Below, in pieces: positions 35,803 to 37,690 of a stretch of 64,000 bases of DNA; the stretch's first letter is position 1; each line of letters opens with the position of its first letter. Below the pieces are notes generated by a model. It saw only the letters and a program-made list of their open reading frames with translations, did no database searches and was not told the DNA's origin. This stretch comes from Shigella phage CM8, in sequence record MK962750, one strand, 5' to 3'. The translations under genes were made by a program, and so were the position numbers.

Positions 35803-35890
35803 TGGGGTGACCGATGGGAGTCGAACCACCCGAGTCGCAATGACAATGGATTTACAGTCCACACCGCTACCTCTACGGGATAACTCCCCT
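35803..35890 (-). tRNA. Degenerate tRNA-like element (possible remnant or atypical tRNA; anticodon-like GUA)
   Basis: Has a TTCGACT T-loop-like motif, terminal CCA and a 5-bp stem with loop ctgtaaa, but no consistent acceptor or T stem could be paired by hand. Confidence 0.25.
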
Positions 35891-36155: not shown

Positions 36156-36806
36156 TTATATATTGTTAATTTGATTTAGAATTCTTTTTGCTTGAGTATG
36201 ACTTACGCCAATATGCTTAGCATATTTAGACAATTCGCCACGTTTAGAAAAATCATATAATTTAGAAATTTCTATTCTTCTTTTTCTTTCATCCGCAGAA
36301 ACTTTTGCTTCGTTTGCTTTTGCTATTTTACGTTTAGCTTCTTGAGAATGAGTTTTACCAGCAAAGCCATTCTTCATTAATCCATTTGAAGACCATCCTT
36401 TTAATTTTCCGTTAGAATGTGCCTTTTTAACACCCAATGAAATTAATTCGCGTTGCTGATCTGTCATAGGATAATTATTTATATGATCCCATCCACCTTC
36501 ACCTCCAAGTTTTAAATTATACACATCTGGTCTATTTAAAAACTCTTCTGTGACAATATTTTTCTCGGCTTCAAGCATAGATTCTTTATCGTCAAAATAC
36601 TCTAATATTTCTTTAGAAAAATTTTCTATACCATATTTATCTTGGGCTCTTTTTAATAATTTACCAGAACCCATATATCCATCATCTAAATTTTCGGTAG
36701 AATGCACACCAATATAAATTTTATTATTAATTTTATTTGTTATTTTATAAAGATAAAAATGCATATCAGTCCCTAATAAAGAACTGAGCGTCTCACGACG
36801 AGTCAT
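36156..36806 (-). CDS. segB: GIY-YIG homing endonuclease, SegB-like
   Basis: 216 aa; GIY-YIG motif YLYKITNKINNKIYIGVH...GYMGSG; inserted in the tRNA cluster; alternative start at 36764. Confidence 0.7.
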   Translation of the reverse strand: MTRRETLSSLLGTDMHFYLYKITNKINNKIYIGVHSTENLDDGYMGSGKLLKRAQDKYGIENFSKEILEYFDDKESMLEAEKNIVTEEFLNRPDVYNLKLGGEGGWDHINNYPMTDQQRELISLGVKKAHSNGKLKGWSSNGLMKNGFAGKTHSQEAKRKIAKANEAKVSADERKRRIEISKLYDFSKRGELSKYAKHIGVSHTQAKRILNQINNI

Positions 36807-36982: not shown

Positions 36983-37591
36983 TTATTTATTACGTGAAAA
37001 AGACTGTTCTATCAATTCTGGACACTTTCGTTCTATCCATTTTCTAGCTTTTTGTGGGCTTATACCTATTATTTTAGCAGCTTTACTAACCCATCCAAAT
37101 TTAGAATAATCGATTTTAACTAATTCTTCGTAAATTTCATCAGTTAAAATCTTTTCATTAATATTTACCAGTAAATGATATAATTTATTATCATTAGCAA
37201 TTTTAATGAATCTTTTATAGTTTCCGCCTTTACTTAAACCTAATGAAGTAATTGCAGATGATATAGTAGCCGAATTTAATAGTGCGTTTAAAATTTCTTC
37301 ATCACTAACATTATAACGCTTTTTATTATTTTTAATATTTTTACCAGCAAAAGTATCAGTTTGCGAATGGCAGTTTGGACATAATAATCTTAAATTTGAT
37401 TTAAGATGATTTTTGTTATTTCCATCAATATGGTCTAATTGCAGAACAATATGCTTATTTTGCCATTTTGAAATTTTACAAATTGCACACTCATATGGAA
37501 AAATATTTTCTTTTATTATTTTGTCTTTCAGCTTTCCTGTACTAAAATTTGGATGTTTTCCTTCAAAAATTTCAGCTAATTTAGTATCCAT
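36983..37591 (-). CDS. Free-standing HNH homing endonuclease
   Basis: HNH/zinc motif CAICK...HIVLQLDHIDGNNKNHLKSNLRLLCPNCH; ATG at 37589-37591 chosen over the ORF-track TTG; C-terminal helix-turn-helix-like region. Confidence 0.7.
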   Translation of the reverse strand: MDTKLAEIFEGKHPNFSTGKLKDKIIKENIFPYECAICKISKWQNKHIVLQLDHIDGNNKNHLKSNLRLLCPNCHSQTDTFAGKNIKNNKKRYNVSDEEILNALLNSATISSAITSLGLSKGGNYKRFIKIANDNKLYHLLVNINEKILTDEIYEELVKIDYSKFGWVSKAAKIIGISPQKARKWIERKCPELIEQSFSRNK

Positions 37592-37690
37592 AATATGATT
37601 CCCAATTATTAACAAAGGCTCTCTAACAAGAACCCTTGATGATAGAGGGTATTAATCAGTGCGGTATGAGTTAATAATAACAAATAATTC

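Follow-up and report, generated by a model that had tools for sequence, protein, structure and literature searches.

A hybrid tRNA-Tyr/tRNA-His gene remnant very probably left by a single 269-bp deletion in a Tequatrovirus tRNA cluster

Introduction

Deletions in the tRNA gene cluster of phage T4 that create hybrid tRNA genes were reportedly described by McClain and Foss in 1984 (Cell 38:225-231). In these mutants, which are said to have been psu deletions selected in the laboratory, the 5' part of one tRNA gene is reportedly joined to the 3' part of a downstream gene at a short sequence common to both, with loss of the intervening genes. Further points of comparison are provided by the T4 rII deletions between short direct repeats, by tRNA pseudogenes and remnants, and by species 1 and 2 (rnaC and rnaD), the non-tRNA RNAs that are co-transcribed with the T-even tRNA cluster. 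A keyword search of the literature on natural hybrid or pseudo-tRNAs in T4-like phages returned nothing relevant. A current view is that phage tRNAs compensate for host defences that target tRNAs, and anticodon nucleases of the colicin E5 type cleave the tRNAs for Tyr, Asn and His as well as that for Asp.

In the present work, we have analysed an element in the tRNA cluster of a 64-kb stretch of DNA (hereafter the window) from a natural phage isolate. Like the T4 hybrid genes, it consists of a 5' part from one gene (tRNA-Tyr) and a 3' part from a downstream gene (tRNA-His) that meet within a sequence common to both, and the intervening genes are absent from the 64-kb window. It differs from them in its natural origin, in its partners, Tyr and His genes being absent from T4, and in that its halves are mismatched and permit no cloverleaf. 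As in the T4 rII deletions, the endpoints lie in an exact direct repeat (here of 11 nt) of which one copy has been kept, but in this case the repeat is a functional T-psi-C arm motif that coincides with the recognition core of the homing endonuclease SegB. The element resembles tRNA pseudogenes and remnants in being tRNA-derived, located in a tRNA cluster, below threshold in score and probably functionless, although, unlike typical examples, it is a hybrid free of point-mutation decay. Its position suggests that, like species 1 and 2, it is co-transcribed with the cluster as a non-tRNA RNA, but it has no sequence similarity to either of them. We conclude that this element is very probably a hybrid, non-functional tRNA gene that was left by a single 269-bp deletion in a Tequatrovirus tRNA cluster.

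Materials and Methods

The tRNA genes of the window were called with ARAGORN and with the Rfam tRNA model (RF00005; gathering score 29 bits). Breakpoints were located by base-by-base alignment with six intact relatives, and the identity figures were obtained from five of these (viz. FelixPlatter, phage 107, fPS-65, AR1, and PBM-1). The junction was sought with a 40-nt query centred on it, at a threshold above what either half alone reaches. The positive control for the exact-junction scan was the 3' end of the intact Tyr gene, comprising its T arm and acceptor strand, and this was recovered in 77 IMG/VR contigs.

Results and Discussion

The tRNA cluster of the window and of its intact relatives

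The source phage of the window is T4-like (Tequatrovirus). A 1.7-kb query around the element matched 850 phage records, mostly from Escherichia and Shigella Tequatrovirus, with identities of at most 99.7%, and no near-identical record was obtained with a 20-kb query, for which the best match had ~96-97% identity over 87-89% of the query. The tRNA cluster is carried on the minus strand, where ARAGORN calls six working tRNAs with Rfam scores of 59-73 bits. The features of the cluster are as follows:

36983-37615, minus strand: 210-aa ORF with an HNH-like CPNCH motif and no Pfam match
36976-36890, minus strand: tRNA-Leu (ARAGORN)
36884-36811, minus strand: tRNA-Gly (ARAGORN)
36156..36806, minus strand: GIY-YIG homing-endonuclease gene (Pfam GIY-YIG, E 6.3e-6)
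36149-36060, minus strand: tRNA-Ser (ARAGORN)
36054-35979, minus strand: tRNA-Thr (ARAGORN)
35977-35903, minus strand: tRNA(CAT), upstream neighbour of the hybrid (Met according to ARAGORN)
35803..35889, minus strand: hybrid tRNA-Tyr/tRNA-His pseudogene, 87 nt (breakpoint alignment with six intact relatives)
35798-35723, minus strand: tRNA-Arg(TCT), downstream neighbour of the hybrid (ARAGORN and Rfam)
about 35357-35240, minus strand: rnaD homologue, 99.1% identical to T4 over 116 aligned nt, with the BLAST match at 35354-35240
35233-35095, minus strand: rnaC homologue, 98.6% identical to T4

The tRNA set of the window lacks Gln, Pro, Tyr, Asn, and His, and endonuclease genes stand in place of the first two. 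The 210-aa ORF ends 7 nt ahead of tRNA-Leu, where KIT03, IME339, and T4 have tRNA-Gln, and PBM-1 has a similar ORF at the same position. The GIY-YIG gene sits between tRNA-Gly and tRNA-Ser, where tRNA-Pro is located in IME339, FelixPlatter, and T4. The identity of the tRNA(CAT) varies between Met and Ile in the annotation of relatives; its position after tRNA-Thr is that of T4 tRNA-Ile, yet its sequence is substantially different, and an elongator Met tRNA and a lysidine-dependent Ile tRNA are both candidates. The rnaD and rnaC homologues lie downstream of a 116-aa ORF that comes after tRNA-Arg, the stop codon of which rnaD abuts or overlaps, and the rnaC homologue contains a T-arm-like GGTTCGAATCC at 35117-35107.

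In hundreds of intact relatives the order of genes is tRNA(CAU), tRNA-Tyr(GUA), tRNA-Asn(GUU), a 114-nt spacer, tRNA-His(GUG), and tRNA-Arg, and the Tyr-Asn-spacer-His series is seen in KIT03, PBM-1, FelixPlatter, AR1, fPS-65, and phage 107. The interval from Met to Arg, measured from 5' end to 5' end, is 449 bp in the intact arrangement and 180 bp with the deletion.

Anatomy and parentage of the element

The initial annotation of this region had proposed a degenerate tRNA-like element between tRNA-CAU and tRNA-Arg on the basis of a T-loop-like motif, a terminal CCA and a stem-loop exposing GUA. Such an element is indeed present: it occupies 87 nt on the minus strand, starts 13 nt past tRNA(CAT) and ends 4 nt ahead of tRNA-Arg(TCT), and each of these hallmarks is found within it. 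Its parts are the following, all on the minus strand:

35889-35803: full element, GGGGAGTTATCCCGTAGAGGTAGCGGTGTGGACTGTAAATCCATTGTCATTGCGACTCGGGTGGTTCGACTCCCATCGGTCACCCCA
35828..35889: Tyr-only part, comprising the acceptor 5' strand, D arm, anticodon arm, long variable arm and T-stem nt 1-3
35846..35862: intact tRNA-Tyr anticodon stem-loop, GTGGA / CTGTAAA / TCCAT, with stem GTGGA at 35862-35858, loop CTGTAAA at 35857-35851 and stem TCCAT at 35850-35846
35855-35853: anticodon GTA
35817..35827: deletion junction, the 11-nt repeat GGTTCGACTCC common to the Tyr and His T arms
35825-35819: T-loop motif TTCGACT
35803..35816: His-only part, comprising the T-stem 3' strand, acceptor 3' strand, discriminator C and CCA
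35805-35803: terminal CCA

The hallmarks are not due to chance, as both parts of the element match known tRNA genes exactly. Nucleotides 1-73 of the hybrid are those of tRNA-Tyr(GUA), with 73 of 73 positions identical in FelixPlatter, phage 107, fPS-65, AR1, and PBM-1 (local BLAST: 73 nt, E 4e-34), and the last 30 nt, which include the 4-nt ATTA spacer, are those of the tRNA-His 3' end, with 30/30 identity in the same five genomes (local BLAST recovered 25 nt, E 4e-8). The two stretches of identity overlap by the 11 nt of GGTTCGACTCC at 35827-35817, and the sequence that spans the Tyr/His junction is GGGTGGTTCGACTCCCATCGG. The three-way alignment of the window with KIT03 and PBM-1 is collinear as far as the GGTTCGACTCC of Tyr and becomes so again from the GGTTCGACTCC of His, after which the His-derived end and the ATTA spacer are followed by an intact tRNA-Arg. 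The breakpoint analysis places the number of missing bases at 268-269 bp, and the multiple alignment has 269 common gap columns. No second copy of Asn, the His 5' body, the Tyr 3' end or the Asn-His spacer was found by BLAST within the 64-kb window.

In these alignments, the endpoints of the deletion are the direct repeats GGTTCGACTCC, one in the Tyr and one in the His T arm. The pieces removed are the Tyr 3' end, the entire Asn gene, the spacer and the 5' body of His, so that what remains is nt 1-73 of Tyr fused in register to the His 3' end. Tyr, Asn, and His are thus all inactivated by the 269-bp deletion, the whole set being removable by one deletion because the three genes are clustered. 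Recombination between the repeats, replication slippage or single-strand annealing probably gave rise to the deletion. Among all pairs of tRNA genes in the cluster, as determined in PBM-1, it is Tyr and His that share the longest exact repeat, this 11-mer, which explains why it was they that recombined. The direction of the event is unambiguous, since the halves belong to two functional genes and the hybrid folds as neither of them. Each half is identical to a functional gene of the relatives, and hence the event is recent and took place in one step.

The initial annotation had also suggested a decaying tRNA, possibly for Tyr or Pro. The element is tRNA-derived and is not a working canonical tRNA, and to this extent the suggestion holds, as does the assignment to Tyr, which is supported by the GUA anticodon. 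Pro is wrong, and mutational decay is absent: the halves are 100% identical to the genes of intact relatives, and hence the defect comes entirely from the deletion and not from substitutions. Gradual decay was rejected in view of the zero substitutions relative to the parental genes.

The 114-nt Asn-His spacer, which is absent from the window, opens in FelixPlatter (480-593 of sequence L005, minus strand) with the perfect hairpin GTGACAACTGTCAC, and neither the T4 tRNA region nor the window contains a significant match to this spacer. A promoter scan of the FelixPlatter spacer revealed no consensus promoter on the transcribed strand, and thus the scan provides no evidence that the deletion took away a promoter for tRNA-Arg.

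Folding and predicted loss of function

The stems that could not be paired by hand at the time of the initial annotation also do not pair when the Tyr cloverleaf is imposed on the hybrid, which has the same length as intact Tyr (87 nt). The acceptor stem then has 3 of 7 standard pairs (GC, GA, GC, GU, AG, GG, UC) and the T stem, which retains the loop motif TTCGACT, has 3 of 5 (GU, GA, UC, GC, GC), compared with 7/7 and 5/5, respectively, in the intact Tyr cloverleaf; the energy of the imposed cloverleaf is +6.2 kcal/mol for the hybrid vs. -20.9 kcal/mol for intact Tyr. Neither the acceptor nor the T helix forms, and therefore there is no cloverleaf: one strand of each comes from Tyr and its partner from His. 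The anticodon arm has a proper stem and 7-nt loop (GUGGA / CUGUAAA / UCCAU, anticodon GUA). The unconstrained minimum free energy fold has no terminal helix and places the 5' end inside a local hairpin, and its stability is not above that of shuffled sequence (z-score -0.67). The discriminator is C, in the His register, where intact Tyr has A.

The checks that had been proposed for the element, a tRNA finder and a covariance-model search, gave concordant results. ARAGORN returns no canonical tRNA at the hybrid, though it calls the intact Tyr of relatives, and the Rfam tRNA score of 22.7 bits is under the gathering score of 29 bits; the underlying alignment drops the T arm and pairs the 5' end with ACTCC of the T loop, in a shifted acceptor register. 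The Rfam gap between intact tRNA-Tyr and the hybrid is only ~7.5 bits, and for this reason the structural argument leans mainly on the explicit pair counts. The intact T-even tRNA-Tyr itself scores 30.2 bits in PBM-1 (1070-1156 of sequence L002) and is sub-threshold in KIT03 (1073-1159 of sequence L001), ARAGORN calling both; by hand pairing it has a C-C mismatch in the D stem, and some database records label it 'tRNA-OTHER'.

RNase P and aminoacyl-tRNA synthetases recognise determinants that depend on the acceptor/T-arm stack, and those requiring this stack are predicted to be absent from the hybrid, which is almost certainly a dead gene remnant. Since 13 nt separate it from the preceding tRNA(CAU) and 4 nt from the following tRNA-Arg, all on one strand, it should be part of the same precursor transcript and is probably still co-transcribed with both. 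The 3' end of the hybrid would be set when RNase P cuts at the start of tRNA-Arg, whereas the 5' end of the hybrid itself, which would not be an RNase P substrate, is unlikely to be matured. The resulting RNA would be neither aminoacylated nor used for translation and would probably be degraded. The upstream tRNA would now bear a structured trailer of ~100 nt, which may slow its 3' maturation.

Distribution and apparent recurrence of the junction

Both halves of the hybrid are present ~333 bp apart, which is the intact arrangement, in ~600 phage records, and with the 40-nt query the junction was found only in phage vB_EcoM_IME339 (two records of one genome). No exact junction was detected in IMG/VR, GTDB genomes or JGI metagenomes. 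The IME339 hybrid is located at 1453-1541 of sequence L004 (MH051915.1, about 98953-99041) within the cluster Gln-Leu-Gly-Pro-Ser-Thr-Met-[hybrid]-Arg, where it is unannotated and receives no ARAGORN call. Its 3' end reads GGTCCCCCCCA in place of GGTCACCCCA, so that the former His acceptor strand differs from that of the window by an A-to-C change and one extra C, changes that could be due either to a relaxation of constraint or to a sequencing error in a homopolymer.

Of the 731 positions aligned outside the deletion, only 4-5 separate the window from intact KIT03 and phage 107, and 36 separate it from IME339, which is nearest to intact PBM-1 and AR1 (18-20 differences). The nearest informative sites on either side of the junction, viz. 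a C/T polymorphism located in the anticodon stem of Tyr and the stretch immediately beyond tRNA-Arg, also differ between the hybrids of the window and IME339. The deletion probably recurs, since IME339 has the same junction on a different flanking haplotype, and on these sequence comparisons two independent deletions at the same microhomology is the simpler reading; a single deletion followed by recombination within ~130 bp is a possible alternative. The presence of the same junction in IME339 indicates that the hybrid is a real, recurring biological product.

Alternative explanations

The initial annotation had left room for an atypical tRNA, and a functional tRNA-Tyr with alternative acceptor or T-arm pairing could account for several properties of the element: it shares its D arm, GUA anticodon arm and long variable arm with the intact phage Tyr, its 87 nt equal the length of that gene, it gives a sub-threshold Rfam match (22.7 bits), and its sequence would allow the 5' GGGG to pair with CCCC near the 3' end. 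This reading is extremely improbable, as the element has only 3/7 acceptor and 3/5 T-stem pairs with an imposed cloverleaf at +6.2 kcal/mol, attains its Rfam score only by deletion of the T arm and movement of the acceptor onto T-loop sequence, goes uncalled by ARAGORN where the intact Tyr of relatives is called, hides its 5' end in a local hairpin at minimum free energy, and carries the discriminator C of the His register rather than the A of intact Tyr. We give equally little credence to an artefact of assembly or sequencing, in which a repeat was collapsed or a minority deletion variant was taken as the consensus. The junction does lie inside a repeated motif, and the IME339 record has a suspicious C homopolymer beside it, but a repeat of 11 nt is far too short for a normal assembly to collapse, the flanks on both sides are perfect apart from it, and the same junction occurs in an independently sequenced phage. 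Deletions that form hybrids in the T4 tRNA cluster are also said to have been documented, in the 1984 work of McClain and Foss.

The other structured RNA that the initial annotation had envisaged as processed with the cluster finds no support. Another alternative is that the element is a selected non-coding RNA, e.g. a decoy in which the Tyr anticodon arm engages host anticodon nucleases or modification enzymes, or a stable RNA similar to species 1/2. The Tyr anticodon stem-loop has been kept intact, the same hybrid is found in two phages of different backgrounds, and the T4 cluster contains stable non-tRNA RNAs, of which rnaC has a T-arm-like motif; the decoy role of the retained arm is a further possibility. 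Against selection, the hybrid occurs in 1 of ~600 related phage records and in 0 IMG/VR contigs, vs. 77 contigs with the intact Tyr 3' end; its fold gains no stability over shuffled sequence (z = -0.67); it does not resemble rnaC or rnaD, both of which are present separately in the window as genuine homologues ~450 bp downstream; the copy in the window is free of substitutions with respect to the parental genes and so gives no sign of selection on a new structure; the 3'-end changes of the IME339 copy are consistent with relaxed constraint; and microhomology alone accounts for the recurrence. We therefore consider a selected RNA to be very improbable. Two related candidates were also rejected: an Rfam E-value scan of both strands for another known RNA family yielded only chance-level matches to DdR13 and saliva-tongue-1, and the BLAST matches of T4 rnaC and rnaD lie elsewhere in the window, with none at the element.

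A SegB-type homing endonuclease as a possible trigger

The site of the T4 homing endonuclease SegB has a conserved core, GGTTCRANTCC, which is the T-psi-C motif, and the enzyme cuts near CCAR at the 3' ends of tRNA genes, T2L tRNA-Asn being cleaved most efficiently and Tyr being one of the others (Brok-Volchanskaya et al., 2008; PMC2330249). In a motif scan of the window, the junction GGTTCGACTCC at 35827-35817 fits this core and CCAA at 35805-35802 fits the downstream CCAR, forming a predicted site. The window contains six motifs of the GGTTCRANTCC type, and the core is also found in other tRNA genes of the cluster (4/6 in the window and 7/9 in PBM-1). The protein encoded by the GIY-YIG gene of the window has 83% identity to T4 SegB over ~117 N-terminal aa, beginning from the SegB-equivalent start; its catalytic domain is SegB-like, and its C-terminal half has no similarity to T4 SegB beyond 117 aa. 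The product looks like a domain-swapped Seg enzyme, and the label of the gene in relatives varies between segB and segD.

Speculatively, cleavage by a SegB-type endonuclease could have set off the deletion: a cut at the Tyr or Asn 3' end would fall between the repeats, and single-strand annealing would then yield exactly the hybrid. Three observations count against this trigger, viz. that the enzyme of the window has no more than the catalytic half in common with T4 SegB, that KIT03 has the same endonuclease gene yet an intact Tyr-Asn-His block, and that IME339 has the deletion yet a cluster free of endonuclease genes. The deletion is equally well explained by replication slippage or by ordinary recombination between short repeats. 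A broader proposal, that the T-loop repeat of Tyr and His is a recurrent T-even deletion hot spot at which breaks by SegB-family enzymes trigger repeated one-step loss of Tyr, Asn, and His, is in our view unlikely. If it were true, tRNA content would be a fast-switching trait, relevant to defences that cleave the tRNAs for Tyr, Asn, and His.

Significance of the hybrid

The proper annotation of 35803-35889 is a Tyr/His hybrid pseudo-tRNA. The hybrid opens no new RNA class or mechanism; it is a clean natural case of the shrinkage of a phage tRNA repertoire in one step via a conserved T-loop sequence, apparently on two occasions. Its interest is modest and is related to its apparent recurrence at the core motif of a homing endonuclease and to the joint loss of the G34 tRNAs for Tyr, Asn, and His. 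Loss of the Tyr-Asn-His set could alter host range. The tRNAs that are lost together (Tyr GTA, Asn GTT, and His GTG) all have G34 anticodons of the queuosine family.
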